Shown here: in pieces, positions 22,926-43,929 of the stretch | How positions within the stretch are numbered: the first letter of the stretch is position 1 | Layout of the letters: every line of letters begins with the position of its first letter | NCBI GenBank assembly: GCA_041650935.1 | Contig: JBAZKH010000003.1 | Location: 101,269-165,268 of the forward strand | Length of the DNA: 64,000 nt | Reading direction: 5' to 3' | From: Candidatus Omnitrophota bacterium | GTDB taxonomy: Bacteria > Omnitrophota > Gorgyraeia > 2-01-FULL-45-10 | The notes under the pieces: model-generated | What the model was told of the DNA's origin: nothing | The model's database searches: none | The model's input: the letters and a program-made list of their open reading frames with translations, nothing else | Translations under genes and position numbers: made by a program

Positions 22926-24104
22926 CTACTCTCTCACGCCCAGGTAGGTGATCCTGTCGATCGCCTTACCCTTTACGGCATCTGTCAACTTTTTATATAC
23001 GCTCTCGATATCGCCCATGCCTATCTCTCTTCCGCCAAGCCCGTAAATATAATTCGCGACGATCTTGTTTAAATTTTTATTAAAGAGAGCGGCTTTAACT
23101 TCCGAACAGAGCGGCCCCTCGCATCCACTGAGCGAATCGGACCTGTCCATAACAGCTATGGCTTTTACACTTTTCAGCGCATCCGCTATTTCGTCCTGGG
23201 GGAACGGCCTGAACGCTCTCGGTTTAAGCAGGCCGACCTTCATACCTTTTTCCCTCAACTCGTCGACGACAACCTTCGTCGTACCAGCCGTCGAACCCAT
23301 TGCAACGATGGCGCAATCGGCGCCGTCCAGCTTATACGTTTCGAAAAGGCCGTAAGAACGGCCGGACTTCTGCGCGTATTCTTTGCCGACATCCGCTATT
23401 ATCGATTTTGCGTTCTTCATTGCCTCGGCCGCCTGGCGCCTGTGCTCGAAATAATAGTCGGTCAGATCGAGCGCGCCGACCGTAATAGGTTTAGCGGCAT
23501 TTAAAAGGTAATATTCGGGTCGGTATTCACCTATGAATTTCTGCACATCCTCGTCGGAAAGAATCTCGATGCGTTCCATGCCGTGGCTTATGATGAACCC
23601 GTCCGTCGTCACTATCGTGGGCAGTTTTGCTTTCTCGGCTATCTTAACCGCCTGTATCATATTGTCATAACCTTCCTGCGCGTTCTCGGAGAATATCTGG
23701 ATCCAGCCGGCATCCCTGACCATCATAGTATCGGAATGGTCGCAATGTATGTTGATCGGGCTGGAGAGGGCGCGATTGACGTCGGCCAGCACTATCGGAA
23801 GCCGCAGTCCTGCCGCGATGTAGAGCATCTCTGCCATCAGGGCAAGGCCCTGGCTCGAGGTACCGGTCATCGCCCTGCCGCCGGCCACACTTGCGCCTAT
23901 GCAGGCAGACATGGCGGAGTGTTCGCTCTCGACCGGGACAAACTCTGTCTTGACTACGCCGTCCGCGACATAGCCGGCGAATATCTGGACTATCTCCGTC
24001 GCCGGGGTTATCGGATAGGCCGCGACTACGTCAGGATTTACCTGCCGCATCGCTTCCGCCATCGCCTCGTTTCCGGTTCTCGCTAGTACATTCATTTTAG
24101 CCAT
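22926..24104 (-). CDS. porA: Pyruvate:ferredoxin oxidoreductase alpha subunit
   Basis: 392 aa: MAKMNVLARTGNEAMAEAMRQVNPDVVAAYPITPATE..., a typical PorA. Confidence 0.9.
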   Translation of the reverse strand: MAKMNVLARTGNEAMAEAMRQVNPDVVAAYPITPATEIVQIFAGYVADGVVKTEFVPVESEHSAMSACIGASVAGGRAMTGTSSQGLALMAEMLYIAAGLRLPIVLADVNRALSSPINIHCDHSDTMMVRDAGWIQIFSENAQEGYDNMIQAVKIAEKAKLPTIVTTDGFIISHGMERIEILSDEDVQKFIGEYRPEYYLLNAAKPITVGALDLTDYYFEHRRQAAEAMKNAKSIIADVGKEYAQKSGRSYGLFETYKLDGADCAIVAMGSTAGTTKVVVDELREKGMKVGLLKPRAFRPFPQDEIADALKSVKAIAVMDRSDSLSGCEGPLCSEVKAALFNKNLNKIVANYIYGLGGREIGMGDIESVYKKLTDAVKGKAIDRITYLGVRE

Positions 24105-24174
24105 GTTTTAGGGTCTAGGATATCAGGATATATTAGATAGGAAAATATTTTCCCTATTCATTATAGCCCCTACC

Positions 24175-24495
24175 CTATCTACTATTCTGTTTCGCTTCTT
24201 TCTCGGAAATCATCTTAATCGCTTTTCCCTTGACCGGGCACTCGTGCTCGCATATCCCGCACCCTTTACAATGGTCGTAATCGAACCCCACGACCTTGCC
24301 GTCCTTGACTATAACGGCCGAATCGGGACAGTATACCCAGCACGTAAGACAGCTTATGCACTTTTCAGGTATTAGGACCGGCCTTGATGAACGCCAATCG
24401 CCGGTCTTAAAATCTTTTGCCGTGCCGCCGCCCGCTATAATATCCGCTTCCGGTATCGCCCGCCACCCTGGTTTTTTATTTTTCTCTATAGCCAT
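24175..24495 (-). CDS. porD: Pyruvate:ferredoxin oxidoreductase delta subunit (2x[4Fe-4S] ferredoxin)
   Basis: CISCLTCWVYCP and CKGCGICEHECP cysteine motifs. Confidence 0.9.
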   Translation of the reverse strand: MAIEKNKKPGWRAIPEADIIAGGGTAKDFKTGDWRSSRPVLIPEKCISCLTCWVYCPDSAVIVKDGKVVGFDYDHCKGCGICEHECPVKGKAIKMISEKEAKQNSR

Positions 24496-24520
24496 ATTCC
24501 CGCCATCTGACAGCTAACAG

Positions 24521-25099
24521 CTAACTCCTGACTTCGCTATATGCCCGCTCGATAGCTTTAAGGTTTCCCTCTATGACTTCGGGCTTAGACTTGAACTTTT
24601 TTTCGAGCTTCTTGCGCATATCCTCGGACATTGCCTTAAAATCGAGTATGCCGGTCGCTTTTATGAGCGCGCCAAGCATCGGCGTATTGGGTATATCCCT
24701 GCCTATGGTCTCCATGGATATAGTAGAGGCGTCGACCGTAAAGACCTTGATAGAGCCTGTTATATTGAATATCTTCTTGATATCGGCAGGCGGCTTTTCG
24801 CTATTAATAACGAGAACGCCGTTTACAGGTATACCTTCGGTCACATCCACAGTCTCTATAAGAGTCGGATCGAGGACCATTACAATAGAGGGATTTTCCA
24901 CTCCGGAATGGAGCAGGATCGGCTTGGATGAAATACGGTTAAACGCTGTAACGGGCGCGCCCATGCGCTCCGGACCATACTCCGGAAACGCCTGTATATA
25001 CATTCCTTGGGCAAGCGCAGCGTCCGCAAATAAAAGAGCGGCCGTCTTTGCTCCCTGGCCGCCCCTTCCATGCCAGCGAATTTCAGTTAATTCTTTCAT
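24521..25099 (-). CDS. porG: Pyruvate:ferredoxin oxidoreductase gamma subunit
   Basis: 192 aa: MKELTEIRWHGRGGQGAKTAALLFADAA..., a typical PorG. Confidence 0.9.
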   Translation of the reverse strand: MKELTEIRWHGRGGQGAKTAALLFADAALAQGMYIQAFPEYGPERMGAPVTAFNRISSKPILLHSGVENPSIVMVLDPTLIETVDVTEGIPVNGVLVINSEKPPADIKKIFNITGSIKVFTVDASTISMETIGRDIPNTPMLGALIKATGILDFKAMSEDMRKKLEKKFKSKPEVIEGNLKAIERAYSEVRS

Positions 25100-28541: not shown

Positions 28542-29843
28542 TTAGTCTTCCGGCGGCAGTGTGAGGCGCGTAGCGGAGCCGATGCCGGAGGCGACCTCGG
28601 GGATTATACCCATCTTCCTGTATATAGGATGGATCTGTTTCTTTATGAGCGGAAGTTTTGTGGCGAAGATGCCGGATGCCAGAACACAGCAGACCCCGCC
28701 TATTATAAGCGTATTCCCCGCTCCTATCTTATTCGCCAGCGTTCCTGCCAATAGACTCCCCAACGGCGCCATGCCCATGAAGGCCATCGTATAGAAACTC
28801 ATAACCCTGCCGCGCTTATCATCGTCGGAGATCGTCTGCAGGATCGTATTGCTTGCCGCCATGTGCGTCATAAATCCAAATCCGGATATCGCCAGTAAAA
28901 GCACCGAAAGCCATAATGAACGCGAAAAAGAGAATGCTATAAGGCCCGCGGCGAATATCGAAGCGCACACAGGTATCATGCCGCCAAGGCCCACTATGCT
29001 CTTACGCGATGCCAGATATATCGTAGCCGCCAGCGCCCCGACGCCGATAGCGGCCATGAGAAGGCCGAAAGTCTCCGGCCCGCCGCCCAGGACGTCTTTG
29101 GCAAATACCGGCATAAGCACAATATACGAAGCCCCCATCAGGCTTATCACGGCCAGAAGCAGTATTATAAACCTGATCGGCTGAAAGCCGAATGTATATA
29201 AAAACCCTTCCCTCAACTCATCAAAGAGCCGTATCGGTGTCTTCTCGGACGCACGCCTTTTGATATCCATCGCAGCCAGAGATGCAATTACGGCCGTGAA
29301 GCTTACGGCATTCAGCAGAAAACAGATTCCTTCGCCCATAATCGCAATGATTACACCGGCAATCGACGGGCCGATAAGGCGCGCAACGTTAAACATCAAG
29401 GAATTAAGCGCTATCGCATTCGCCAGGCTCTCCTTCTTCTCGACCATCTCGACTATAAAAGCCTGGCGCGCCGGAATATCGAACGAGTTTATGAGCCCCA
29501 GGACTACGCCCAGCACAATTATGTGCCATACAGCTATCGTTCCTGTAAGCGTCAATACCGTAAGCACCACGGCCTGCAGCATTAAAAGCGACTGCGTCAC
29601 TATCAAAATTTTGCGGCGGTCCACCCTGTCGGCCAACAGCCCTGCGAACGGGCTGAATATAAAAGTCGGTATCTGGCTGGAAAAACCGACTATGCCTAGG
29701 ACGAGCGGCGAATTTGTCATGCGATAGACCAGCCAGCTCATCGCAACGGCCTCCATCCATGTCCCTACCAGCGATATACCCTGACCGATAAAAAAGAGCC
29801 GGAAATTCCTGTAACGCATAGCGCGGAAGATGGTCCTTAACAT
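28542..29843 (-). CDS. MFS transporter (efflux type, EntS/macrolide-exporter-like)
   Basis: 433 aa with 12 TM helices: MRYRNFRLFFIGQGISLVGTWM. Confidence 0.8.
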   Translation of the reverse strand: MLRTIFRAMRYRNFRLFFIGQGISLVGTWMEAVAMSWLVYRMTNSPLVLGIVGFSSQIPTFIFSPFAGLLADRVDRRKILIVTQSLLMLQAVVLTVLTLTGTIAVWHIIVLGVVLGLINSFDIPARQAFIVEMVEKKESLANAIALNSLMFNVARLIGPSIAGVIIAIMGEGICFLLNAVSFTAVIASLAAMDIKRRASEKTPIRLFDELREGFLYTFGFQPIRFIILLLAVISLMGASYIVLMPVFAKDVLGGGPETFGLLMAAIGVGALAATIYLASRKSIVGLGGMIPVCASIFAAGLIAFSFSRSLWLSVLLLAISGFGFMTHMAASNTILQTISDDDKRGRVMSFYTMAFMGMAPLGSLLAGTLANKIGAGNTLIIGGVCCVLASGIFATKLPLIKKQIHPIYRKMGIIPEVASGIGSATRLTLPPED

Positions 29844-31066
29844 CCCGAGCCCTCCTTTATTATCCTGACTACCGCGTCCATATCTTTCGCGTCGAGATAC
29901 GTGCTCGTCGATAAGGCCAGGGACCTTGCCGCAAGGCTCCTGCCGCCCTGCGCCCGCCTGTCCGGCACAATCCCTTTCAGGTAGCCAAAATCCGTTACCG
30001 CTTCGGAATAGATTACCGAGGCGCCGAGCCCGGCCCCCTGCAGAGCCGACAATACTTCGCCGCGCCTTTCGGCCTTTTCGAAAAGGATCGTTACGAAAGG
30101 ATACGTCGCAAAATCTCCGGGAGATTCTCTCACAAGCCTAACCCCTTTCACACCCATAAGTTTCCCGAAAAAATAACCGGCTTTTTTTCTCTGGTCCCTG
30201 ATAGCGTCTTCTATTCGATAAAATCCGGCATGTCCCACCGCCTGTCTGAAGGCCGAAACCTTGTTCACGGGAAAGCCGGCGTCGAAACGATCCTGGTTTG
30301 CCCTTACCCTATCGCCGGCCATGACCCAAAAAACATACGGAAGCCTGTAAACAAACCAGAATGCCTGCGGCCGATAGAATAACCAGTAACCGAAGAGTTC
30401 CGCTATCTTTACGCTTTCCGAAAACGCTTCCTTTTTAACGAGCCGGGCAATCGTATCGTCGAGCTTTGTCTCAAATTCCTTATTATTGGTTACCAGGGCG
30501 CCGCCCTCGTAAATAGTAAGCCCCTTCCCGCGCGCCAGGCTAAAGAAAGAAAAGTCGCCGGATGTCCCGGCATATCTACCTTGATGCCGCACCCCGAACG
30601 ATTGAGCGCAATCTTCTATCAGAAACGCCCCGCATCGTGCCGCCGCCTCTTTTACAGCATTTAGTCTTACAGGCACGCCTCCGATATGCGCGGCCACTAT
30701 TGCCAGGATCTCCTTATTACCGGCGCATATGCGCTCAAGCTCATCCGGCGCGAAATTAAAATCATCGCCTGTTACATCGCAGACCTCTATCTTCAGGCCG
30801 GAGCGCGCAATGGCCAGGGGTACGAGCGCGCATATATAAGAAGGTATCACCACCGTCTTCTTACCGGATATTTTTTTAAGTGTCTCCAGGATAAGATACA
30901 GGGCCGTGGTGCCGGAATTTACTATGCGGCAATAACCGGTTCGAAGATAATTTTTAATATCATCTTCGAGCGAACCGGCAGGCAAGGCGCCCGCAACTGC
31001 CGAGAGCAAATCTTTCGCGTAAAGCGGTATCCCCGCGGTCGGCGGGATCTCTTTGAATATTCCCAT
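29837..31066 (-). CDS. DegT/DnrJ/EryC1/StrS family PLP-dependent aminotransferase (sugar aminotransferase, ArnB-like)
   Basis: 409 aa with N-terminal aminotransferase-fold blocks. Its start overlaps the MFS gene by 7 nt. Confidence 0.7.
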   Translation of the reverse strand: MGIFKEIPPTAGIPLYAKDLLSAVAGALPAGSLEDDIKNYLRTGYCRIVNSGTTALYLILETLKKISGKKTVVIPSYICALVPLAIARSGLKIEVCDVTGDDFNFAPDELERICAGNKEILAIVAAHIGGVPVRLNAVKEAAARCGAFLIEDCAQSFGVRHQGRYAGTSGDFSFFSLARGKGLTIYEGGALVTNNKEFETKLDDTIARLVKKEAFSESVKIAELFGYWLFYRPQAFWFVYRLPYVFWVMAGDRVRANQDRFDAGFPVNKVSAFRQAVGHAGFYRIEDAIRDQRKKAGYFFGKLMGVKGVRLVRESPGDFATYPFVTILFEKAERRGEVLSALQGAGLGASVIYSEAVTDFGYLKGIVPDRRAQGGRSLAARSLALSTSTYLDAKDMDAVVRIIKEGSGC

Positions 31067-31152
31067 AAATTCGTTAAATCGGTTGTGCTAAATTCCTTTT
31101 TATTATAGAATAAAAATATACTTTTTACATAGAAAAATTTAAGATAAAAACT

Positions 31153-32280
31153 ATGCCACTCGCGGTAAAGATATCCCGGTCGATAACCGGGATCGGCCAA
31201 AAAGACTGGGAGAGCGTCTACCCCGGCATCCCGGAAAGCTATGGTTATCTCAAAACCTGCGATGAGACCCTCCGCGGACAATTCGAATTCTATTACGTCT
31301 CTATTTATGACGAGGGCGGCATCGCCTTCTGTGCGCCCATCTTCGTAGCCAACTACCCTATCGAGACGACACTGGACGGCCCTTTAAAAAAGACGGCCGA
31401 GGCGATCAGGCGCGTCCTGCCTAAACTACTCACGTTCCGCGCGGTAATATGCGGCTCGCCGGCATGCGAGGGCCGCGTGGGCATAAAGGATACTGCCGGA
31501 TGGGCCAGGATGCTCGATATCCTTGTGCGCGAGATGGACGGCATCGCCCGGACCGAAAACGCGTCGGTTTTGGGGTTCAAAGAATTTTCGGAAGATTACG
31601 ATACCCCTTTCGCGCGCCTTAAGGATATCTTTTTTCGCAAGTTCCCGGCTTTTCCATCCGTCAGGATGGAATTGCCCTTTGGGACTTTTGATGAATATTT
31701 CCGGACATTGAGCAAAAAGACACAGATAGACCTTAAGCGAAAATTTAAGAAGACAGACGGCACCGTCGATATAAGGATGGCGGTGCTCCCCTCGCTGGGC
31801 GCCCTGCTCGACGAAGCCTACGGGTTGTACAGGGCCAATCTCGATAAAGCGGAGACGAGGTTCGAGGAGATGACCAGGGATTTTTTCCGCAGGATTCCGG
31901 AAAATATGCCGGGGGAATCCAGATATTTTGTCTGGCACATCGACGGCAGGCTCGCCGCCTTCAGCCAGACGCTCGTATCTAAAGACCTGCTGATAGCCGA
32001 ATATATAGGATTCGATTACAGCGTGGCATACAAATACAACCTGTATTTCATAGTAATGAGGGACCAGCTGAAGTGGTGCATCGAAAACGGCATACGTAAA
32101 TATGAGTCGGGCGCGCTAAATTACGACCCGAAGAGACGGCTGGGCTTCACGTTTGTGCCGCAATATATCTACGCAAGGCACAGGAACCGTTTTGTCAACG
32201 GACTTCTTGCCATAGTTACTGGAATATTGGACCCGCAAAAACACGATCCCGTCCTCAAATCTTTGCGGAAGAAGCCGTGA
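31153..32280 (+). CDS. FemAB-like/BioF2-like GNAT acyltransferase (Acetyltransf_6-type), paralog 1
   Basis: 375 aa with conserved blocks RYFVWHIDGRLAAF, KYESG and KRRLGF...YARHRNR, which are shared with the paralog at 35332-36555. Confidence 0.65.
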   Translation: MPLAVKISRSITGIGQKDWESVYPGIPESYGYLKTCDETLRGQFEFYYVSIYDEGGIAFCAPIFVANYPIETTLDGPLKKTAEAIRRVLPKLLTFRAVICGSPACEGRVGIKDTAGWARMLDILVREMDGIARTENASVLGFKEFSEDYDTPFARLKDIFFRKFPAFPSVRMELPFGTFDEYFRTLSKKTQIDLKRKFKKTDGTVDIRMAVLPSLGALLDEAYGLYRANLDKAETRFEEMTRDFFRRIPENMPGESRYFVWHIDGRLAAFSQTLVSKDLLIAEYIGFDYSVAYKYNLYFIVMRDQLKWCIENGIRKYESGALNYDPKRRLGFTFVPQYIYARHRNRFVNGLLAIVTGILDPQKHDPVLKSLRKKP

Positions 32281-33157
32281 CGCGCTGGAAAAAATCGGCC
32301 ACTTTCCCGGCAACCGTCTCCCTCTCCTGGTCGGCGGTAACCACATGGTAGGAATCGTAAAGGAGTATCATCTCTTTTATCTTCGAGTTTACTTTGTCAT
32401 AAATAAACTTCGAATTTTTGACACTCGCCACGTCGTCGTCTTTAGCCTGTATAAGTTGGACCGGGAAATCCATCGCCGGGAGCCTTCGCGTAACATGTTT
32501 AACCATGAGCTGCAGCTCGTATAACAGCGTAACAGGGAAGAATGGATAGCCATACTGTTCGGCGTCTTCGGTATCTTCAAACCGGGCCGTGCTATAATAT
32601 TTGTGGATACGCTGCTGAATTATCTCGTTCTTTATCCCGTAAGGCGGCGATTCCTTAAAATACGCCAGGTGCCGGAGCGGCGTATACGCGAACGGGAAGA
32701 AGAGCTTGGAAAGCGGCGTGTTCCACCCGTCGTAAAAGAGCGTCGGCGCAAGACAGCTCACGCCCAGGACGCGGTCCCTGAATTCATCGGCCAGCATAAG
32801 GGCAAAGAGCGCGCCCATCGAAAGGCCGGAGATGAATATTGGCCCTTCGAAGTCCGCCATGGCGCCGTTTATAAATACCATACGCAGCGACGCATAGAAC
32901 TCCTGCCAGGTCGTATTCTTCAACACCCATAATGACTCACCGTGATTTGCAAGCTTAGGACATATCACCGTGTAACCGCGTTTATTGAGGTAAGTGGCGA
33001 GATACTTCATTTCATTGGGAGTGCCGGTAAGACCATGGATGAGGATAACGGCACTGCCGTTATCTCCCGGGAAGAATAACCCCTTACCGTTATTCGAAGA
33101 ATTTTTCGGCTTATGCTTCTTTAGATTATTTATGTCGAACGAAAAGATAACGGACAT
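32255..33157 (-). CDS. Alpha/beta-hydrolase fold esterase/lipase
   Basis: 300 aa with nucleophile elbow GLSMGA and an HGLTG oxyanion region. Confidence 0.75.
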   Translation of the reverse strand: MSVIFSFDINNLKKHKPKNSSNNGKGLFFPGDNGSAVILIHGLTGTPNEMKYLATYLNKRGYTVICPKLANHGESLWVLKNTTWQEFYASLRMVFINGAMADFEGPIFISGLSMGALFALMLADEFRDRVLGVSCLAPTLFYDGWNTPLSKLFFPFAYTPLRHLAYFKESPPYGIKNEIIQQRIHKYYSTARFEDTEDAEQYGYPFFPVTLLYELQLMVKHVTRRLPAMDFPVQLIQAKDDDVASVKNSKFIYDKVNSKIKEMILLYDSYHVVTADQERETVAGKVADFFQRVTASSAKI

Positions 33158-33167
33158 ATTTTTAAGC

Positions 33168-34613
33168 CTACGCGGGATAAGATATCGGTAGTGATACGGT
33201 AAAAGTCGAGCCTTTACCCGGCCGGCTCTCCACGTCTATCCTGCCCTTATGCGATTCTGCGATCGATTTCGCTATGCTCAAACCCAGGCCAAAACCATTC
33301 TTGTTGATGCGGGGTTTATTTATCTGGTAGAACCTGTCGAATATATACGGAAGCTCGTCGTCCGGCATACCTATGCCGGTATCGCTTACGGTAATCCGCG
33401 CGCATTTTTCATCCTTGTGGGCCGACACTATTATCCGCCCCTTCCTGAGGGTGTATTTGACCGCGTTGTCGAGCAGGTTGGAGAATAATTTCTTAAGCTG
33501 GTCCTCGTCACCGTCCAGGATTATCTTATTGTGCAGAAACGAGGATAGGGCTATGTCTTTCCCCCCGGCGGATATCTTTGCGTTCCTTACCATCTCCTCC
33601 AATATATTCGTCACGTTGGTCTTCTTTATCTCGAGCGGCATCCGGGAATTGTCAAACTTCGCGAGGATGAGAAGGTCATCGATGATCGACGAGAAGTGAT
33701 TCAGCTCTTCCAGGGCCTTATGCAGGATCGCATCAGACGCCTCTTTGGAATACGGTTTTCTTACTGCCTCCTCGAGCTCTCCTTTAAGCATAACCAGCGG
33801 CGCTTTAAGTTCGTAAGATATATCCTGTATAAAGCTTTGCTGAGACGAAAAAGACCTGTCGAGACGGTCTATCATATCGTTAAAGGTATCGGCGAGCCTC
33901 TTCACCTCATCTTTCGTATCGGGGATGTGTATCTTAAGTTTCAGGTTTTCCGCCGTAATCTGCTTTAGGGTATCTATCATGCTATTGACCGGTTTCAGCG
34001 TCAAGCCGGCCAAAAGGACACCGGGGATCCCGGCAAGAAAGATCGTAAGAGGCAGGAGAAGGATGAGGACAAGGATGAGGTTGTGCAGCGCCAGCGATAT
34101 GAGATAGGCCGGCGCGGCCACCTGGACTACATACCTGACCTTCCCGTCCTCGATAACGGGCTTGGTATAAACTTTGAATCTGGTCTTCTTCCCTTCGGAA
34201 GAGACGCCCTTCAGCGTATCGAAACTATCTTCGCCGTCCAGGACATCCTCGAAGTCAGACTTATCGATGGACGATATGAAAGGCATTGACTTGGTCGCCA
34301 CCAGTCTCTCGCCGCCTGGATTGAGTATCTGGACGTATAGCTTCATAAGCTCCGGGTCTTTGCGCTTCTCCTCCACCCACCCGCGGGCGATATCGAGGAA
34401 AGAATTCGTATCCGTCCTGGTTTCGGCGGAATGCAGATAGGTATGTACGGCATCGACCACGCCTTCCGCGCGCGAACTCAAAAGATCCTCAAGGTTTCCC
34501 ACAAGGATCTTATCAAAGCTTCCGTAGAGCACTCCGGAAAAAGCGAAGAGCGTTATCGTAAGCAGGAGCATGTACCACAAAAGCATCTTGAATCGTATCG
34601 ATCTTATGAACAT
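33168..34613 (-). CDS. Sensor histidine kinase (two TM, HAMP, HisKA, HATPase_c), orphan
   Basis: H-box LKAPL/ISYELKAPL, N and G boxes DTGIGM...GFGLGLSIA. No adjacent response regulator. Confidence 0.85.
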   Translation of the reverse strand: MFIRSIRFKMLLWYMLLLTITLFAFSGVLYGSFDKILVGNLEDLLSSRAEGVVDAVHTYLHSAETRTDTNSFLDIARGWVEEKRKDPELMKLYVQILNPGGERLVATKSMPFISSIDKSDFEDVLDGEDSFDTLKGVSSEGKKTRFKVYTKPVIEDGKVRYVVQVAAPAYLISLALHNLILVLILLLPLTIFLAGIPGVLLAGLTLKPVNSMIDTLKQITAENLKLKIHIPDTKDEVKRLADTFNDMIDRLDRSFSSQQSFIQDISYELKAPLVMLKGELEEAVRKPYSKEASDAILHKALEELNHFSSIIDDLLILAKFDNSRMPLEIKKTNVTNILEEMVRNAKISAGGKDIALSSFLHNKIILDGDEDQLKKLFSNLLDNAVKYTLRKGRIIVSAHKDEKCARITVSDTGIGMPDDELPYIFDRFYQINKPRINKNGFGLGLSIAKSIAESHKGRIDVESRPGKGSTFTVSLPISYPA

Positions 34614-34623
34614 ATTTTTTCTT

Positions 34624-35004
34624 TCAGCTCACCGATATCAGCACTATACCGCCCATCACTAAAAGCGTGCCCGTAACCTTCATCCTGTCTACCTTTTCGC
34701 CCAGGAAGATATGCGCCGCGGAAAGTATAAAGATGTATTGGATGCTGCCGATGGGAAATACGAAGCTTAAATCTGCCTGGGCCAGGGCCATTATCCATGT
34801 GGCAACACACAAAACTTGAAAGGCCAAACCAAGCCATATATAGCTTTTCGAAAGGACGGTCTTCAAATAACTGATGTGCCCGGATACTCCCCGCATCTTT
34901 CCCGCTTCTACCGCGTTGGTGCTCTTTTTGAAGAATATCTGGCCGGTAACATTCAGGGCTTCCGATAACAGGATAAGCAGTATTACCCTAATCACTGTGG
35001 ACAT
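34624..35004 (-). CDS. Small 4-TM EamA/DMT-family protein (ArnE/ArnF-like flippase subunit)
   Basis: 126 aa with four hydrophobic helices. It pairs with the adjacent 146-aa paralog, as ArnE/ArnF heterodimers do. Confidence 0.55.
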   Translation of the reverse strand: MSTVIRVILLILLSEALNVTGQIFFKKSTNAVEAGKMRGVSGHISYLKTVLSKSYIWLGLAFQVLCVATWIMALAQADLSFVFPIGSIQYIFILSAAHIFLGEKVDRMKVTGTLLVMGGIVLISVS

Positions 35005-35432
35005 ACTGCACCGTCTCCTTTTTGCCCTTCGGCAAGCTCAGGATTTTTGCTCTGCGACGTGAAATATATCCCCAGAACTATCATGGCTATACCCAGCCAT
35101 CTGATAGGACTGACATGCTCGTGCAGGAAAATTACCGCTATGATAGGGACAAAAGCATAAGCAACCGAACCCACCGGCATCGCTATGCTGAGGTCTATGC
35201 GGTAGATTATCACCAGCCATAAGACAAAATTCACTATGTATACAAGTATGCCCAGCCATACGAGCCAGGACGAGAGGCTGGCAAACCCGAACTCTATTAT
35301 ATTGTTTAAACCTATTACGCTGATCCCTGTATCAGCCAGCCCTTTTTTCAGAAACAGCTGGGCTATGCTGTCCATGGCGTCGTTTAATACTATCAGGGCG
35401 AACACCTTTAGCGTCAGATGTCCTTTTTTCAC
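34992..35432 (-). CDS. Small 4-TM EamA/DMT-family protein (ArnE/ArnF-like flippase subunit)
   Basis: 146 aa, translationally coupled to the downstream paralog. Its 5' end overlaps the C-terminal tail of the GNAT paralog by about 100 nt, so one of the two boundaries is uncertain. Confidence 0.5.
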   Translation of the reverse strand: MKKGHLTLKVFALIVLNDAMDSIAQLFLKKGLADTGISVIGLNNIIEFGFASLSSWLVWLGILVYIVNFVLWLVIIYRIDLSIAMPVGSVAYAFVPIIAVIFLHEHVSPIRWLGIAMIVLGIYFTSQSKNPELAEGQKGDGAVCPQ

Positions 35433-36555
35433 GGAGACTCCTTGCTATTTTTTTCAGGTCCGGATCGAAATTCTCAAATTTTAAAAATTTGCACATCGTC
35501 CTGAATAGCGGATTGATCACGCGGTTCCTGTGTTTAGCATAAATATGAAGCGGCGTAAAATCGAACCCGAGGCGTTTCTTAGGCTCGTATCCGCTAAAAC
35601 CTATCTCATACTTTTTTATATTGTTATCGATGCACCATTTCATAACGTCCCGGTGTTTCACGAAGAAGAGATGAAGATCGTGCGCCACCGCATAGTCGAG
35701 GCCAAGGTAATAATCGACCATCAGGTCATTCGCCACAAGAGCCAGAAGAAAAGCGACGAGCTTGCCGTCTACCCGCCATAAGAAGAACTTCGTCTCGCGC
35801 GGCATGTGCCTTGGTATGTTTTTGAAAAATTCGATCGGCACTACTTCGAAGCCCACTTCATGCTTATTGACCATCTGCAGGTAAAGGCCGTAAACCTCTT
35901 CCAGGGTCTTCTCATCAAGACTATCGACGATCTCCATCTTTATATTCGCGCTCGCTTCCGCTTTTTTGAATTTTCTTCTCAGGTCGTATCTTGAAGCACT
36001 GCTCAATTTCATCAGATATTTGTCGAAACTGTCGAAGTCGAGATCCATCTCCGCGTAAGGCAGGCTGTCCACTTTAAAAAACTTCTTTGCGAGGAGCGGC
36101 TTCAGGGTATCGTTGTATCCGTGCGAGAAGTCTTTAAAAGCCAGGACCGAAGCCTTCTCATGTTTAGCTATCTCTTCCATCTTGTGCAGCAACACTTCGA
36201 TGATCTCCTCTTCCCGGGCGGCCATACCTATATGGCCCTGCCCCATAGGGACTCCGCAGACAAAAGCCCGCACGCTTAAAAAGTTGGGGAAGGCGCGCTT
36301 CACAAGGTTCATCATGCGCTTTGTCGCGCCGGTCATACTCGTATCGAGGGAAAAATCTACCGAGAAGCAGGGCGCGGCGCCGACAAGATCTTCGCCGTCG
36401 TAGACCGTTACGTAATAGAGGGAAAATTGTTCGAAGTTACTATCGTCCATCACCCTGAAAAAGTCGTACCCTTCGATGGTGGCGGGAAATATATCTTCCC
36501 AGGCGGCCCTGGGAACATCTTCGATCTTTTTTGTTACTCTTGTCGTTAAGTTCAT
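35332..36555 (-). CDS. FemAB-like/BioF2-like GNAT acyltransferase, paralog 2
   Basis: 407 aa: KFFLWRVDGKLVAF...KYEIG...KKRLGF...YAKHRNR, parallel to paralog 1. It has an extra ~30-aa basic C-terminal tail. Confidence 0.65.
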   Translation of the reverse strand: MNLTTRVTKKIEDVPRAAWEDIFPATIEGYDFFRVMDDSNFEQFSLYYVTVYDGEDLVGAAPCFSVDFSLDTSMTGATKRMMNLVKRAFPNFLSVRAFVCGVPMGQGHIGMAAREEEIIEVLLHKMEEIAKHEKASVLAFKDFSHGYNDTLKPLLAKKFFKVDSLPYAEMDLDFDSFDKYLMKLSSASRYDLRRKFKKAEASANIKMEIVDSLDEKTLEEVYGLYLQMVNKHEVGFEVVPIEFFKNIPRHMPRETKFFLWRVDGKLVAFLLALVANDLMVDYYLGLDYAVAHDLHLFFVKHRDVMKWCIDNNIKKYEIGFSGYEPKKRLGFDFTPLHIYAKHRNRVINPLFRTMCKFLKFENFDPDLKKIARSLREKRTSDAKGVRPDSIKRRHGQHSPAVSEKRAG

Positions 36556-36612
36556 AGGTTATATTATACTAGTAAAACAAGCTTTTCGTAAAGCTAATTG
36601 TGGAGAAAATTT

Positions 36613-36634
36613 GGAGGTTTAAACCTCCCCTACG
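36613..36634. repeat. TTTAAA-loop hairpin element (copy D, truncated left arm)
   Basis: GGAGGtttaaaCCTCCcctacg. The right arm is identical to copy C (58310-58339). Confidence 0.55.
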
Positions 36635-36714
36635 TTCTCGTTGAGATACTTCTTTACGCGTCTTAAGCTCGCCACAGAGCCACATCACATTAGACTGATA
36701 CGAAAAATTTTACC

Positions 36715-36768
36715 CATAAACCAGAAAGCCGCTGCTGTAAGGCGGTGGAGCTTCACTGCCGCCGCCTT
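36715..36768 (-). repeat. 50-nt post-stop-codon repeat (copy 2) AGTGAAGCTCCACCGCCTTACAGC...ATGGGTAAAATT, overlapping the PRTase stop codon
   Basis: 24/24 nt are identical to 16238-16261, and ATGGGTAAA(A)TT is shared again 20 nt downstream. It has the same orientation relative to the flanking genes as copy 1. Confidence 0.65.
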
Positions 36769-37436
36769 GAAAATTCTTCCTTCAGTATGGCAATGACCGC
36801 TTCGTCCGTAGTCTGTTCGAAATTGACGTAGAATTCCCCGACTGCGCCGAAGAATGGAGGGACCCGCAGACAGACGACTTCGTCGCAAGAACCTGCTATC
36901 CTGTTGACGGCTTCGGCTGAAGCAACCGGGATACCGGCGATAAGCCTGGCCGGGGCCTCTTCTCTTACCGCCCAAAGCGAAGCCTGCATCGTAGCGCCTG
37001 TGGCCAGCCCGTCATCTACAATAATAACCGTCTTATCATTAAGGATTGTCTTAGGTAATGCTTTGCGGAATATCCCTGACCTGCGCCTTATCTCCGACAA
37101 TTGACGTCCTGCCTCTGCTTTTATATATGTCTCGTCGGCTCCGGTCTGCGCGGCTATATTCTTATCCAGAAAGATCCTGTTAGTTTCGCTTATCGCACCT
37201 ATGGCAAGTTCGGAATTGCGGGGAGCGCCAAGTTTCCGGGAGAGCGCTATGTCAAGATCCGATTCCAGGATAGCGGCTACCTCTTTACCGATAACGACTC
37301 CGCCGCGCGGGATCCCGAGGACAACCACCGCAGAACCGCCGCCCAGGTGCCGCAGCGCGTTCCCTAATAGCCTGCCCGCTTCTTCACGGCCGCGGAAGGC
37401 CGCGCTACTATCCGACAGGATCGTTATCTTTCCCAT
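36753..37436 (-). CDS. Phosphoribosyltransferase-domain protein (type I PRTase fold, COG1926-like)
   Basis: 227 aa with the PRPP-binding loop VIIVDDGLATGATM. Confidence 0.75.
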   Translation of the reverse strand: MGKITILSDSSAAFRGREEAGRLLGNALRHLGGGSAVVVLGIPRGGVVIGKEVAAILESDLDIALSRKLGAPRNSELAIGAISETNRIFLDKNIAAQTGADETYIKAEAGRQLSEIRRRSGIFRKALPKTILNDKTVIIVDDGLATGATMQASLWAVREEAPARLIAGIPVASAEAVNRIAGSCDEVVCLRVPPFFGAVGEFYVNFEQTTDEAVIAILKEEFSRRRQ

Positions 37437-39584: not shown

Positions 39585-40325
39585 ATGAAGATACGTATCC
39601 TGGGAACGAACGGCTGGTTCGACACCGCGATCGCCAATACAGTATGCATACTCATTGAGACAAATGAATGTTACATAATACTCGATGCCGGCGGCGGATT
39701 CCATAAGGCAAGAGAGTATATAAAGGCGGACCGGCCGGTCTATCTATTCATAAGCCATCTGCACCTCGATCATATAATCGGACTTCACACCCTTCCGCTA
39801 TTCAAGGTACCTCAGGGAATAGATATCTATCTGCCCGGAGGCATGGCGGCGCCGCTAAAGACTTTCCTGGATAAGCCCTACACTTCGTCTGTCGATACAC
39901 TCGCCTCTCCGGTAAGGATACACGAGATAGATACCGAGAAGCCGCCCAGACTCGCGGTCGATTTTGGACAACTTTGCCACTGGACCCTCTGTTACGGGTA
40001 CCGGTTTAACCTGGAAGGCAGGATAATCTCTTATTGTACGGATACGGGTATCTGCGACGAACTACGCATTCTCGCAAAAGACTGCGACCTCCTTATAACA
40101 GAATGCTCGTTCAAGCCCGGAGAGGATGTCAGCAAAACCCTCCATCTTAATCCGGAAGCGGCGGCAGAGATCGCTAAAGAGTGCGGGGTAAAAAAACTCG
40201 GCCTCATCCATTTCGATGCGGGACGTTATCCCGCCTTAAAAGACAGGGCCCTGGCCGAGAAGACAGCTGTAAAGATATTTCCGAATACTTTCGCGGCGTT
40301 CGACGGGCAGGAAGTCAAACTGTAG
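39585..40325 (+). CDS. MBL-fold metallo-hydrolase (RNase Z/phnP-like)
   Basis: HLHLDH metal-binding motif (SHLHLDHIIG). Confidence 0.75.
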   Translation: MKIRILGTNGWFDTAIANTVCILIETNECYIILDAGGGFHKAREYIKADRPVYLFISHLHLDHIIGLHTLPLFKVPQGIDIYLPGGMAAPLKTFLDKPYTSSVDTLASPVRIHEIDTEKPPRLAVDFGQLCHWTLCYGYRFNLEGRIISYCTDTGICDELRILAKDCDLLITECSFKPGEDVSKTLHLNPEAAAEIAKECGVKKLGLIHFDAGRYPALKDRALAEKTAVKIFPNTFAAFDGQEVKL

Positions 40326-40353: not shown

Positions 40354-40878
40354 TTACTTTTTAAGGAATGCGAGCAGATGTTCTATTATGGTAATTGGAT
40401 CGGGCGGGCATCCCGGTATGTGCGCCGATACCGGTATTATATTTTTAACACCGCCTGCGACATAGTAAGCGCTCCTGAATAACCCTCCGCCTAAGGCACA
40501 ATCACCAAGCGTTATTACATATTTCGGCTCCGGTATTGCGTCGTAAGTCTTTTTGAGCGCAAGCGCCATATTTTTGGAGACCGGCCCCGTAACTAAAAGA
40601 GCGTCCGCGTGCCTGGGTGAGGCGACAAAATCGACGCCAAACCTCTGAATGTCATACACCGGGTTCGTCGCTGCGATGATCTCGGACTCGCAACCGCCGC
40701 AGGAACCGGTATCGAGGGCGCGGATATGAAAGGACCTGCCGAATTGCTTACAGACCAGCTCTTTAAACTCGCTCCCAAGCGCCTCCAAATCCGCCGGCTT
40801 TTGGCGCATCGCATCCGGTAAGGATCTTGTCACGACGCCTTTGGATAACCTGTTCTTTATTATCCTGAATATGCTCAT
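40354..40878 (-). CDS. NuoB/hydrogenase small-subunit-like [4Fe-4S] protein of the Ehr-like/FHL-like complex
   Basis: CGGCESE, GDCALGGG and IPGCPP, the four Cys ligands of the N2-type cluster. Confidence 0.85.
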   Translation of the reverse strand: MSIFRIIKNRLSKGVVTRSLPDAMRQKPADLEALGSEFKELVCKQFGRSFHIRALDTGSCGGCESEIIAATNPVYDIQRFGVDFVASPRHADALLVTGPVSKNMALALKKTYDAIPEPKYVITLGDCALGGGLFRSAYYVAGGVKNIIPVSAHIPGCPPDPITIIEHLLAFLKK

Positions 40879-42467
40879 AGATCATTCCCTGAATAAGATA
40901 GATCGAAGCTCTTATTGCATAACGGAAAATCGGGTATTATGTTGCCCAGGACGGCAAACGAAAGCGCTTCCCAGTTATGGAAAGACGGGTCGACGATCTT
41001 GCATCTTTCGATAAGACCCCCATCATCGATTTCGACCCAATAGAGTGTCGCGCCGCGCCAGCCTTCCGAGTATCCGAGGGCGGCGCCGGACTTAAACGGA
41101 GGTATCGAACCTGCGCATGCCGCTTTTGAGGAAAGCTCATCCCAGTCGATAAGCTGCGCTATGATCCTGGCAGATTCTTCAAATTCCGCTATCCGGAGAT
41201 TGAGCCTCGCAAGAACGTCGCCGGCCGACTCCTTTGCCGCGTTAAACCGGATCCTGTTATATATACCTGCAGGAAAATCCTTACGTATATCCATCGATAT
41301 GCCGCTCGCCCTGGCCGCGGGGCCGACTACGCCCAGGTCCTCGGCCGTCCGCTTCTTTAATATACCCGTTCCGTCAACCCTATCCATGAACGAAACGCTG
41401 TTATAGAGCATCGCTTTTAACTTAGCGAAATCTTTCGAAATAATGTCAAGGGATCCGCGAAGGTTTGCCGCATCTCCGCTCGTCAAGTTTTTGCATACAC
41501 CGCCTATCCTGTTCATGCCCTTAAGATACCTGCTGCCGGTAAGGGCCCGGTTCATGGCAAGCATAGACTCTTTTATCACGGATGCATATGCAGACGGAAA
41601 GCTAAAACCCACATCTACAGCCATACCGCCTATATCCGCCGCATGATTATACATCCTCTCCAGTTCCAGCATTATTGCCCTGGCGGCCGCGGCATCCTCC
41701 GGGATGTTTATCCCGCAAATCTTCTCGACGGCGCGGCAGAACGCAAGACTATGGCCGAAACAAGAATCACCGCTCACGCATTCGGCGATCTTCACGGCCT
41801 CGGAGACGCATATCCCTTCCAGCAGTTTTTCGATGCCCCTGTGGGTGAAGCCGAGCCGCTCCTCCATGTTTATGATCGGCTCGCCGGCAGCGCTGAACCG
41901 GAAATGGCCGGGACCGATGATGCCCGCGTGGACGGGCCCGACGGGCACTTCGAATATCCCTTCGCCCTCTATCCTGTTGAATTTGTATTCACCGGACGGC
42001 GGCTTACCCGCTCGAGCGGCGGAAAAGTCTTTCCTTAAAGGATACGCCCCTTCCGGCCATACCTCGTCGTGAAGCTTGAGCCTGCGGCTATCGGGATTCC
42101 CATCCGGGGTTATACCGAACATCTCTTTTATCTCGCGCTCGAAGAGGCTCGCCGAATAGATATCTTTCGACAGGCTGTCGAAGCGCGGGTTATCGCCGCC
42201 GATATCGGCGCAGACTATTACCCATCTCCTGTATTTGGCCGACATGAAGACACATTTCAGCGTAAATACTCCTCTTGACTTTCTTTCATCGGAAGCGAAG
42301 AAAGCCATCACCGGCGATTTCAGCGTCCTGTGCAGTTCAAGGCAGGTCTCCTTAAAGTTTTCCAAAGCTACCTTTATGCGGACCTCGTCGCCGTATAATT
42401 CCGTCATCACGCCGGCCGGCATATTCCGCTTCTCCAGGATATCTTTAAAGATAAGCTTGGGATCCAT
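40875..42467 (-). CDS. Fused NuoC-NuoD / HycE-like large subunit, apparently lacking a complete NiFe ligand set
   Basis: An N-terminal 30-kDa-subunit-like domain is followed by a 49-kDa-subunit-like domain (GPVHAGIIGPGHFRF...GFTHRGIEKL). The L1 site reads ECVSGDSCFGHS instead of RxCGxCxxxH. The C-terminal L2 site reads VDPSFHNW instead of DPCxxCxxH. Confidence 0.8.
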   Translation of the reverse strand: MDPKLIFKDILEKRNMPAGVMTELYGDEVRIKVALENFKETCLELHRTLKSPVMAFFASDERKSRGVFTLKCVFMSAKYRRWVIVCADIGGDNPRFDSLSKDIYSASLFEREIKEMFGITPDGNPDSRRLKLHDEVWPEGAYPLRKDFSAARAGKPPSGEYKFNRIEGEGIFEVPVGPVHAGIIGPGHFRFSAAGEPIINMEERLGFTHRGIEKLLEGICVSEAVKIAECVSGDSCFGHSLAFCRAVEKICGINIPEDAAAARAIMLELERMYNHAADIGGMAVDVGFSFPSAYASVIKESMLAMNRALTGSRYLKGMNRIGGVCKNLTSGDAANLRGSLDIISKDFAKLKAMLYNSVSFMDRVDGTGILKKRTAEDLGVVGPAARASGISMDIRKDFPAGIYNRIRFNAAKESAGDVLARLNLRIAEFEESARIIAQLIDWDELSSKAACAGSIPPFKSGAALGYSEGWRGATLYWVEIDDGGLIERCKIVDPSFHNWEALSFAVLGNIIPDFPLCNKSFDLSYSGNDL

Positions 42468-42468
42468 G

Positions 42469-43929
42469 TCATGCGCCCTTCAGTATCTCTGTCGCCGAAA
42501 CTATGGCACCGTTAAGTAACGACGGCACCTTAAGGCCCATCACGCATATCAATACTAAGAGAAATATAAATACTATCTTCCCGCTAAGAGGTTCGCCCGA
42601 GACCGTCATCTTTTCCGGGGGCCGGCCGAATATGATCTTGCTCAGATGGAATATGATCCCGCCGAAGATAACGGGAATAAATAAGAGCAGCAGCGCCGAC
42701 GTAAAATACGCGCCTTTGGTAAAAGCGGATATGATTATTATGATTTCGCTTAAAAATATGGAAAAAGGCGGCGAGCCCACAAGCGCAAAGCCCGCTATGA
42801 TAACGACCGTGCCTATAAACGGCATCGTCTTTATTACGCCCCTTATCATATTCATATTATTCGTCTTATATTTCTTCACTATCTTTCCGGCGCCGAAGAA
42901 AATGATCGATTTCGTCATCGCGTGATTAAATACGTGGAGGAGCGCGCCGTAAATCCCCATGACGCCGCCGATCCCGAGCCCTATGCAGACTATCCCTATG
43001 TGCTCTATGCTGCTGTATGCGAAGAGCCTCTTCAGGTCCTTCTGCGCCAGTATAAAACCCGCCGACACCACAAGCGACAGGCAGCCGAAGAATATCAAAA
43101 GATTCGAAACATACGCGGAGCCCGCGCACCTGTTCACTATCACGGCAAACCTCAGGACCGCGTAGATCGCCGTCTTGAGCAATACTCCCGAAAGGAGCGC
43201 GCTTATCGGCGAGAGCGCCTGGCTGTGCGCATCGGGCAGCCATGTATGCATCGGCACGAGCCCGGCCTTCGTTCCGTAACCCACCAGTATGAAGAGGAAC
43301 GCCGTCTTTATCAGCCGGGGGTCGAGCCGGGACGCAACGGAGAGCATGCCGGTCCAATCAAGGGTCCGGACACCGCCATGCATGGCAATGGCATAGTAAA
43401 ATAGTATCGTACCGAAAAGCGCCAGCGTTATACCGACCGAGCAGATTATGATATATTTCCATGCGGCCTCGACAGAAGGCTTATCGTTATGAAAACCTAC
43501 GAGGAACGCGGAGACTAGCGTCGTCATCTCTATGGCAACCCAGACAAGCCCCATGTTGTTCAGGACCACTACCAGGAACATCGAAAGCGCAAAGAGATTG
43601 AATAGCGCGTAATAGGTCTTGAGCTTCCTTAAAGATATCGTGCCGGCGGCGAAATCGAGCGCCATGTAATCTATGGAATATAATGATGCCGCAAGGTCGA
43701 CGACCGAAATGGTAAGAAGAAAGAAGGCGCTCAGGGCGTCTATATAAAGAAAGCTGCCTATGGCGATGACCGATTTGGCGGTTACGACAGAATAGGTTAT
43801 TTTGAGGCTTATAAGCGCCGCCGCGAGATGGCCCGAAAAATTTATAACGCCCAGGCCTTTTGCATTATTGACAAAAGGCGCGATCGCGGCAAGCGCCAAA
43901 ATTATACCCAGTATAACCAGTATCTCCAT
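42469..43929 (-). CDS. Antiporter-like membrane subunit (NuoN/NuoM/HyfF/MrpD family)
   Basis: 486 aa, about 14 TM helices, with the WLPDAHSQA motif. Confidence 0.85.
   Translation of the reverse strand: MEILVILGIILALAAIAPFVNNAKGLGVINFSGHLAAALISLKITYSVVTAKSVIAIGSFLYIDALSAFFLLTISVVDLAASLYSIDYMALDFAAGTISLRKLKTYYALFNLFALSMFLVVVLNNMGLVWVAIEMTTLVSAFLVGFHNDKPSVEAAWKYIIICSVGITLALFGTILFYYAIAMHGGVRTLDWTGMLSVASRLDPRLIKTAFLFILVGYGTKAGLVPMHTWLPDAHSQALSPISALLSGVLLKTAIYAVLRFAVIVNRCAGSAYVSNLLIFFGCLSLVVSAGFILAQKDLKRLFAYSSIEHIGIVCIGLGIGGVMGIYGALLHVFNHAMTKSIIFFGAGKIVKKYKTNNMNMIRGVIKTMPFIGTVVIIAGFALVGSPPFSIFLSEIIIIISAFTKGAYFTSALLLLFIPVIFGGIIFHLSKIIFGRPPEKMTVSGEPLSGKIVFIFLLVLICVMGLKVPSLLNGAIVSATEILKGA

Follow-up and report, generated by a model that had tools for sequence, protein, structure and literature searches.

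What does a cell build when it encodes an aminotransferase, two FemAB-like acyltransferases and a pair of half-size transporters side by side, and where does the product go? We addressed this question for a locus at 28.5–37.4 kb of a 64-kb stretch of a Candidatus Omnitrophota contig, hereafter the window, whose open reading frames (ORFs) were domain-checked with Pfam and NCBIfam. The original prediction had read the locus as a pathway for an envelope glycolipid or glycan modified with an aminoacylated amino sugar. Nine ORFs were confirmed across the region, and the domains that had been assigned to these co-localised genes were borne out by the ORF list, Pfam and NCBIfam. We tentatively favour, with a confidence just short of even, the view that the region holds a lineage-specific version of a conserved but uncharacterised gene cluster for envelope amine modification, with a membrane product. 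The domain identities, operon structure, conserved linkage, gene fusions and intact catalytic residues on which this view builds were all observed directly.

The invariant core of the cluster is a basic, cytoplasmic tandem-GNAT protein together with a heterodimeric pair of EamA proteins of the ArnE/ArnF type, each with four transmembrane (TM) segments. DegT aminotransferase and an esterase are conserved accessories; elsewhere, they are mostly joined by a class-III pyridoxal phosphate (PLP) enzyme, a HAD-IB phosphatase and an arginase-fold protein.

Organization of the core operon

The core operon is located on the minus strand and consists of five genes, which are separated by overlaps or by gaps of no more than 10 nt. 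The first gene encodes GNAT-A (35332–36555, −), a cytoplasmic tandem GNAT of 407 residues. It is followed by EamA1 (34992–35432, −) and EamA2 (34624–35004, −), two 4-TM DMT half-transporters (PF00892) of 146 and 126 residues, respectively, and by a HAMP-HisKA-HATPase sensor histidine kinase (33168–34613, −; assigned by Pfam and NCBIfam), which contains two TM segments and one periplasmic loop. The last gene encodes a cytoplasmic α/β-hydrolase (32255–33157, −; Hydrolase_4) of monoacylglycerol-lipase/Est30 type with Ser, Asp and His as catalytic residues. EamA1 starts with a GTG codon (35432–35430); one AAGGAG ribosome-binding site (35443–35438) lies five bases before it, and the start reaches 101 nt into the 3′ end of the GNAT-A gene. 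EamA1 and EamA2 overlap by 13 nt, and the kinase gene is separated from EamA2 by 9 nt and from the hydrolase gene by 10 nt. In the window, this arrangement couples the translation of GNAT-A with that of the EamA pair. The GNAT-A/EamA1 overlap is not an assembly error, because close homologues also carry the overlapping GNAT tail.

Directly after the GTG codon of EamA1, there is a run of six A (35429–35424, −), and the 0-frame codon after the run is AGG. With one A fewer, GNAT-A would be in frame with EamA1, as it is in the fusion proteins P0241, P0245, P0290, P0318 and P0363. The run could be a slippage or frameshift site, or a coincidence. In the public annotation (P0391, 127 residues), the EamA1 gene starts 19 codons downstream of the GTG; the N-terminal part of TM1, which is kept in EamA1 homologues, is lost in that version.

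GNAT-B (31153–32280, +), the second FemAB-like tandem GNAT, is 375 residues in length. Its gene is convergent on the hydrolase gene, with a 26-nt 3′ overlap, and divergent from the DegT gene, with an 86-bp spacer. The DegT gene (29837–31066, −) encodes a DegT/DnrJ/EryC1 PLP aminotransferase with a divergent C-terminal domain. It overlaps by 7 nt with the start of the gene of an EntS-like MFS_3 transporter (28542–29843, −; PF05977, 259.8 bits), which is translationally coupled to DegT.

Predicted fold and family of the GNATs

The two GNATs had been described as paralogs of about 390 residues on opposite strands. The sizes deviate from this figure (375 and 407 residues), but the paralogy stands: GNAT-A and GNAT-B share 38% identity over the full length, both contain the motif blocks quoted in the original prediction, and GNAT-B retains every family-invariant residue. 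Both proteins pass the gathering thresholds of the Pfam families FemAB_like and Acetyltransf_6. GNAT-A scores 70.9 bits for PF04339 (threshold 27) and 51.8 bits for PF13480 (threshold 22), and the corresponding scores of GNAT-B are 37.6 and 50.1 bits. The GNATs gave no match to PF02388, the Pfam family FemAB.

Sequence and profile searches of GNAT-A against PDB chains returned nothing meaningful; the fold search alone was informative. In Foldseek, the AlphaFold2 model of GNAT-A (pLDDT 84.8, pTM 0.82) matched over its full length to FemX of Weissella (E 6e-14), to the peptide synthases Sba18/Sbb17 and to the synthase domains of MprF, A-PGS and L-PGS. The 18 top PDB fold matches are all aminoacyl-tRNA-dependent transferases, and acetyl-CoA-dependent tandem GNATs (Eis-like, VipF) are close behind in the ranking. 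The likeness to the MprF-type domains (6lv0, 4v34, 4v36 and 5vrv; E about 1e-10) is one of fold only. According to the model, GNAT-A would be a tandem GNAT of FemX/MprF-synthase architecture, with two lobes per chain. The FemAB-like identity that had been proposed for the GNATs agrees with both the Pfam matches and this predicted fold.

GNAT-A has 433 homologues, mostly from Omnitrophota. A family profile search collected 4175 representative clusters when the cut-off was set at E ≤ 1e-3, and 506 when it was set at E ≤ 1e-30. Family members are basic (median pI 9.1 for 102 proteins). In the literature on DUF482, PF04339, COG3146, PF13480 and FemAB-like proteins, we found no experimentally established function; the old prediction of COG3146 as a pterin-dependent enzyme has been refuted by experiment, and the role of AlpF/AlpO in argolaphos is a proposal.

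In quick neighbour-joining trees, GNAT-A groups with the GNATs of the related loci L008–L010, whose neighbours are the kinase, the hydrolase and a PRTase-fold protein. GNAT-B groups with the GNATs of L062, L066, L068, L069 and L070; these loci have an EamA pair of their own, along with genes for the hydrolase, the class-III PLP enzyme, HAD, the arginase-fold protein and, in some cases, DegT. In the window, the two GNAT paralogs share one transporter pair. The hydrolase gene is directly followed by DegT in the closest syntenic relatives (L004 and L091), and no GNAT-B is present between them; therefore, GNAT-B is an extra gene of the window's lineage.

Conserved linkage of the GNAT, EamA, DegT and hydrolase genes

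A GNAT scan, in which each GTDB species was represented by a single genome, returned 80 loci, nearly all of them from Omnitrophota; about ten, at 31–33% identity, are from Chthoniobacterales/Verrucomicrobia. In 57 of the 73 loci that extend at least 1 kb to either side, the GNAT is immediately adjoined by small EamA genes; these are downstream in 44 loci (in one case on the opposite strand) and upstream in 13, the latter within one subclade. Several metagenome-assembled genomes (MAGs) hold two or more GNAT paralogs, some of which have no EamA genes. The flanks outside the GNAT-EamA-EamA core vary widely; the three-gene core is therefore a unit in itself. Within 6 kb of the GNAT, recurrent neighbours are histidine-kinase-like genes (22 loci), the same α/β-hydrolase (18), the arginase-fold protein (14), the class-III PLP enzyme (13) and the HAD-IB phosphatase of MtnX/phosphoserine-phosphatase-like type (10).

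The linkage was also followed from the DegT side. Orthologues of the window DegT, about 45–60% identical, occur in Omnitrophota and Nitrospirota MAGs. The sample comprised three genome contexts and 43 metagenome loci, the latter not phylogenetically independent; 45 orthologue loci were counted, many with truncated flanks. ORFs of related loci were taken from stop to stop and named through phmmer/BLAST clustering; Pfam was used to check representative sequences only. In the canonical order, EamA-EamA-GNAT is divergent from DegT-hydrolase and convergent with HAD/class-III PLP/arginase-fold. Across the 45 loci, EamA was present in 39, GNAT in 30, the hydrolase in 27, the class-III PLP enzyme and the arginase-fold protein in 23 each, and HAD in 21. 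In the subset of 17 loci flanked by 4 kb or more in both directions, EamA was present in 16, the hydrolase in 16, GNAT in 14, HAD in 12, and the arginase-fold and class-III PLP proteins in 11 each. None of the six partner families was found in 14 control loci with unrelated DegT-family genes.

The gene grouping is well beyond chance, and the cluster occurs in Omnitrophota, Nitrospirota and Chthoniobacterales MAGs. The functional linkage originally proposed is thereby supported: DegT, GNAT, the two EamA genes and the hydrolase are conserved together across phyla, the opposite of the lack of shared conservation that would have spoken against it. As for the frequent additional partners, the six metal ligands of arginase are all retained in the arginase-fold protein; the class-III PLP enzyme comes closest to GABA aminotransferases and archaeal racemases (Ala/Ser and broad-specificity), and the HAD-IB protein to MtnX and phosphoserine phosphatases.

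Features of the EamA pair, hydrolase, kinase and DegT

The EamA proteins had been placed among pairs of the ArnE/ArnF kind. ArnE and ArnF are indeed the sole NCBIfam models that they match, but all scores stay below the equivalog cut-offs of 92 and 99 bits: the best score of EamA1 is 40.8 bits, and EamA2 reaches 35.8 bits for ArnE and 26.7 bits for ArnF. Like ArnE and ArnF, which are encoded by small adjacent 4-TM EamA/DMT genes of about 110–145 residues, EamA2 and EamA1 are encoded by adjacent genes and are 126 and 146 residues in size.

The nearest solved relatives of the hydrolase are the thermostable monoacylglycerol lipase of Bacillus, LipS and Est30; its Ser113, Asp242 and His271 are conserved in 43 orthologues. 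The sensor kinase has no adjacent response regulator. Receiver domains are located solely at 8.6, 47.5 and 62.7 kb in the window, the nearest being more than 13 kb away from the kinase, as its earlier designation as an orphan implies. Orthologues of the kinase directly follow the EamA pair in about ten loci (L001, L004, L008, L009, L011, L016, L028, L034, L074 and L091).

DegT matches PF01041 with 141.8 bits (threshold 19.8), and its PLP-lysine motif, Gly180-Lys181-Gly182, is invariant in 30 orthologues. It stays below every NCBIfam sugar-aminotransferase equivalog by a factor of about 4–10; the best score is for PseC (99.6 versus 423.5), and that for ArnB is 54.5 versus 631. Residues 33–202 alone align with solved sugar, inosose and AHBA aminotransferases, and the C-terminal domain is divergent.

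Fusion proteins

In five representative clusters (P0241, P0245, P0290, P0318 and P0363), the GNAT carries one C-terminal EamA domain. P0339 contains one N-terminal Hydrolase_4 domain joined to the GNAT. P0312 is composed of PilZ, an alpha-oxoamine synthase and the GNAT, the last of which matches the GNAT profile with E 4.5e-60; the best NCBIfam matches of P0312 are serine palmitoyltransferase (Spt), BioF and Kbl. Some fusions may be assembly frameshifts, although the GNAT-EamA fusion is seen in five distinct 50%-identity clusters. The fusions tie the GNAT physically to a transporter subunit and to an esterase, and they indicate that family members act directly after an amine-creating PLP enzyme. 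The order aminotransferase, (amino)acylation by the GNAT and two-subunit transporter, which was part of the original prediction, agrees with these fusions.

Neighbours with predicted lipid or membrane functions

Several genes near the cluster in related loci point towards a membrane or lipid product. A PagL-family outer-membrane deacylase lies beside the cluster in at least nine loci, in three different relative positions (L090:5405–5989; L093:11216–; L097:7341–; L099:9154–; L103:11276–11938; L108, L109, L119 and L120). The PagL-like proteins contain one signal peptide, the conserved motif RHxSN...PNxGIN and one C-terminal aromatic residue. In L093, L099 and L103, genes of a dedicated type-II fatty-acid synthase (two ketoacyl synthases (KAS), FabG, acyl carrier protein (ACP) and a FabA-like protein) are located inside the cluster, together with one FAD amine-oxidase/phytoene-desaturase-like gene. 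In the variant cluster L103:176–9738 (also L093, L099 and L124), the order of the set is KAS-FabG-ACP-FabA-like-KAS plus the FAD gene; the L103-type set intervenes between the genes for the class-III PLP enzyme, GNAT, hydrolase and EamA transporters. ACP/KAS genes are present in other arrangements in L088, L098 and L131. In L030, L032 and L045, a gene for an ICMT/PEMT-like membrane methyltransferase, weakly similar to Leptospira LmtA, separates that of the class-III PLP enzyme from that of the GNAT.

Proposed pathway and alternatives

In the proposed pathway, the PLP enzyme (DegT here, DegT and the class-III enzyme elsewhere) would put one primary amine on a keto or aldehyde precursor. On the cytoplasmic side of the inner membrane, the GNAT would then form an amide or ester with aminoacyl-tRNA or acyl-ACP as donor; the resulting amphiphile would carry an amine and be an aminolipid or a modified lipid head group. 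The EamA1/EamA2 pair would flip this product to the outer leaflet, the esterase, elsewhere also the arginase-fold enzyme, may trim or recycle it, and the sensor kinase may link expression to the envelope state.

Both donors have their merits. Aminoacyl-tRNA is favoured by the fold ranking and by the C-terminal motif Y-x-G...W...Y-E-x-G...K-(K/R)-R-L-G-F, which is present in the locus GNATs and which we take to be Fem-like; the fold resemblance, the basic pI and scattered tRNA-Ser neighbours are the signs seen that the GNAT may depend on aminoacyl-tRNA. Acyl-ACP is favoured by the ACP/KAS neighbours and the Spt-like fusion. It would also explain why soluble-type head-group enzymes stand beside lipid-type neighbours, because the GNAT step itself would create the lipid.

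A number of observations weigh against a membrane product. Both GNATs fall more than tenfold short of the FemX equivalog NF047883 (25.9 bits, cut-off 500; E 5e-6) and of the PEP-CTERM/exosortase FemAB model TIGR03019 (23.7 bits, cut-off 260.35); DUF2156/LPG_synthase_C, the synthase domain of MprF, gave no Pfam match to the GNAT at E ≤ 0.01. Adjacent EamA genes are absent from 16 of the 73 GNAT loci, no acceptor-lipid synthase is conserved in the cluster among the related loci, and the hydrolase has no signal peptide, unlike bacterial aminoacyl-phosphatidylglycerol hydrolases. The HAD-IB, class-III PLP and arginase-fold partners resemble soluble small-molecule enzymes and, like ICMT genes, were sought across the window and found absent. 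Characterised EamA/DMT proteins mostly export soluble metabolites. All steps beyond domain assignment and gene linkage are inferred.

A possible, though somewhat doubtful, alternative is that the cluster makes and exports a small molecule that is soluble. A free amine or diamine, of polyamine, amino-alcohol or aminocyclitol kind, would be assembled by the PLP enzymes together with the phosphatase and the ureohydrolase; the GNAT would N-acylate or aminoacylate it to give a pseudo-dipeptide or N-acetyl-type solute, the EamA pair, here with MFS_3, would export it in the manner of ordinary drug/metabolite transporters, and the esterase would serve precursor handling or self-protection. MFS_3/EntS-like transporters, like the EamA family, are mostly metabolite exporters, and the HAD-IB (MtnX/phosphoserine-phosphatase-like), class-III PLP (GABA-aminotransferase/racemase-like) and arginase-fold proteins are of types common in soluble metabolism; DegT relatives also use non-nucleotide substrates (inosose, AHBA and NtdA substrates), FemX-fold GNATs form small-molecule amides in natural-product pathways (Sba18/Sbb17; proposed for AlpF/AlpO), and TolC/HlyD/ABC pumps adjoin some GNAT loci. 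A soluble product, however, leaves the recurrent PagL-like deacylase, the KAS/FabG/ACP/FabA genes, the ICMT/LmtA-like methyltransferase and the Spt-like fusion unexplained, and covalent fusion of enzyme and exporter is unusual for soluble products and typical of lipid synthase-flippase pairs such as MprF.

The amino-sugar glycoconjugate of the original prediction now appears improbable; most of what that prediction said beyond the sugar is supported. DegT would make a nucleotide- or polyprenyl-phosphate-linked amino sugar, which would be aminoacylated by the GNATs, flipped by the ArnE/F-like pair and transferred by a GT-C glycosyltransferase to lipopolysaccharide (LPS), a glycolipid or a glycan. 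DegT-family enzymes are mostly sugar aminotransferases, and the best NCBIfam matches of this one are of PseC/LegC/DesI/ArnB type; these matches are far below cut-off, with thresholds missed about 4–10-fold, and the C-terminal domain is divergent. The EamA pair matches the ArnE/ArnF models only, the PagL neighbours suggest an LPS context, and a PMT_2/tetratricopeptide-repeat (TPR) GT-C gene is present in the window, but none of the related loci has a counterpart of this gene nearby. The recurrent neighbours, taken over 125 related loci, include no nucleotide-sugar dehydratase or dehydrogenase, nucleotidyltransferase or glycosyltransferase, and no equivalent of ArnA, ArnC (GT2), ArnD or ArnT (GT-C); instead, DegT is mostly partnered with the class-III PLP, HAD-IB and arginase-fold proteins, often near fatty-acid-synthase genes and the PagL-like deacylase. 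Very improbable is a Fem-type function in peptidoglycan, in which aminoacyl-tRNA would supply the amino acid that the GNATs attach to UDP-MurNAc-peptide or lipid II, as side chain or cross-bridge, with the neighbours being incidental. FemX is the best structural match, the weak NCBIfam FemX match has the E-value given above and the Pfam family name agrees; the FemX equivalog score and PF02388 do not, the same 125 loci have no mur, penicillin-binding protein or division genes among their recurrent neighbours, and the near-obligate EamA pair, DegT, hydrolase and fusions would be left unexplained.

Comparison with known systems

The cluster with its proposed membrane product can be set beside four known systems. 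The gene of an aminoacyl-tRNA-dependent lipid aminoacylase typically has as its neighbour one for an α/β-hydrolase that takes the modifier off again, as is also the case for MprF and fungal ErdS/ErdH (PMC7334510). The proposed division of work between synthase, flippase and hydrolase would be like that of MprF with its hydrolase or of ErdS/ErdH. Like these systems, the locus contains a conserved adjacent α/β-hydrolase that could reverse the modification; like MprF, it encodes a tandem-GNAT transferase of the same fold class, whose catalytic domain is basic and cytoplasmic. The transferase is coupled to a membrane module in the window and fused to one elsewhere, in both cases a DMT module for which translocation of lipid is presumed. 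Different from MprF, the GNAT has no DUF2156/LPG_synthase_C sequence match, its membrane partner is a heterodimer of 4-TM DMT proteins rather than a multi-TM flippase domain, the hydrolase is cytoplasmic and of monoacylglycerol-lipase/Est30 type, and the extra PLP enzymes, phosphatase and ureohydrolase of the cluster have no MprF counterpart.

With the Arn system, the locus shares the DegT aminotransferase, the two adjacent overlapping EamA genes of about 110–145 residues with matches only to ArnE/ArnF in NCBIfam, and a nearby envelope sensor kinase; in relatives, PagL, a lipid A enzyme, is often adjacent. The proposed order of steps, aminotransferase, cytoplasmic transferase and small two-subunit flippase, is also similar. 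However, equivalents of ArnA, ArnC, ArnD and ArnT are not conserved with the cluster, all Arn equivalog cut-offs are missed, and the FemX-fold GNAT would replace the formyltransferase/deformylase logic. The locus is built from parts non-orthologous to MprF or Arn and belongs to neither family.

FemX/FemA/FemB and Sba18/Sbb17 are the best structural matches of the GNAT-A model, with TM-scores of 0.6–0.7 (normalised to target length), but the identity is 10–16%, the FemX threshold is missed and the locus has no peptidoglycan genes. In bacterial ceramide synthesis, a cytoplasmic PLP enzyme is followed by a peripheral-membrane acyltransferase and by translocation to the outer membrane (PMC11087976). 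The scheme of N-acyltransferases that form aminolipids out of a PLP-enzyme product or an amino acid, such as bCerS after Spt and OlsB/OlsF for ornithine lipids, resembles that proposed here, in which a soluble PLP enzyme would be followed by a cytoplasmic peripheral-membrane acyltransferase and translocation. The GNAT of P0312 is fused to an alpha-oxoamine synthase of Spt/BioF/Kbl type, and several clusters contain ACP and KAS genes. The likeness seen is one of scheme. The locus GNATs have no NCBIfam match to such models, and the PLP partners in the cluster are aminotransferases, not alpha-oxoamine synthases.

A wider version of the proposal, which we regard as doubtful, describes a multi-phylum system for aminolipids or lipid aminoacylation with a FemX-fold GNAT, sometimes fused to its transporter, that would produce an amine-bearing lipid in the inner leaflet, and an ArnE/F-like DMT heterodimer as dedicated flippase. 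In its full form, the arginase-fold enzyme would turn a tRNA-delivered arginyl or guanidino-protected group into an ornithyl or primary-amine head group, and the PagL-like enzyme would remodel the lipid in the outer membrane; the whole would be an independently evolved, split analogue of MprF. Whatever the product, a large branch of the PF04339/COG3146 family is now tied to fixed partners, namely the DMT half-transporter pair, the esterase and PLP enzymes, and this partner set is conserved in Omnitrophota, Nitrospirota and Verrucomicrobiota. It offers a concrete hypothesis, testable by heterologous expression, for envelope amine modification in almost entirely uncultivated phyla. If the product is a lipid, the combination of synthase and flippase would have been assembled twice independently, in MprF and in this cluster, and ArnE/ArnF-type small DMT pairs would gain a second substrate class.

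Other genes near the cluster

The PRTase-fold protein (36753–37436, −; TT1426-like, PF00156) matches PDB 1wd5 with E 4e-48. Its gene is located 197 nt upstream of GNAT-A; one hairpin with a T-run (36628–36613) and one promoter-like site (36592–36563) are present in between, and such hairpin and promoter consensus matches are overall not above background. The PRTase is probably a neighbour on a separate transcript, outside the conserved system. Both PRTase and MFS_3 had been counted as members of the locus. Their presence is confirmed, but they travel with the cluster only in close relatives sharing the CstA...DnaX synteny, and both were rejected as core parts. Among the 17 well-flanked DegT loci, MFS_3 is present in three and PRTase in one; MFS_3 was found with the cluster solely in L001/L010, L004, L091, L020 and L029, and weakly in L096 and L105. 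MFS_3 is a lineage-specific addition, and its role in the pathway is uncertain. The GT39/ArnT-like gene with TPR repeats, which had been noted upstream, is real: a PMT_2 (GT-C) protein with C-terminal TPR repeats is encoded at 11265–12917 (−). Its link to the cluster was rejected, as it has no counterpart near the related loci.

In the surroundings of GNAT modules in other genomes, tRNA-Ser genes were noticed (L023:11946–12035; L024:12457–12547; L035:12749–12840; L063:9037–11816; L006:6685–6774). Of the eight tRNA genes located no more than 3 kb from a GNAT in the 80 GTDB loci, six are tRNA-Ser, and in L063 three of them flank the module. This proximity may reflect donor-tRNA linkage, island integration sites or shared synteny. 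The 64-kb window contains no tRNA genes, and a dedicated tRNA or aminoacyl-tRNA synthetase gene sought there was not found. In L006, about 4 kb separate the GNAT-EamA-EamA module (2767–5703; 52% identity) from genes for resolvase/recombinase, phage integrase and tRNA-Ser, and the integrase adjoins the tRNA gene, a hint that mobile islands can carry or border such a module. A ribosome-associated, Uup/EttA-like ABC-F ATPase gene is located immediately upstream of the GNAT in L027 (7990–9912), L028, L024, L026 and L076, and TolC-HlyD-MacB or ABC-2 pumps adjoin it in other loci. ABC-type neighbours were set aside as evidence, since they are heterogeneous (MacB-type pumps, ABC-2 pumps and ABC-F factors).

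The window also contains further genes beyond the cluster, at 19421–21181 (−), 21968–25099 (−) and 40875–47303 (−). They encode a CHASE2-GGDEF diguanylate cyclase, subunits of a 2-oxoacid:ferredoxin oxidoreductase and a module of complex-I/group-4-hydrogenase-like membrane proteins, including one NuoCD-like fusion and one antiporter-like subunit. Following cstA, there is one metallo-β-lactamase-fold gene (39585–40325, +), whose orthologue in L001 matches PF23023 (Anti-Pycsar Apyc1) and Lactamase_B.

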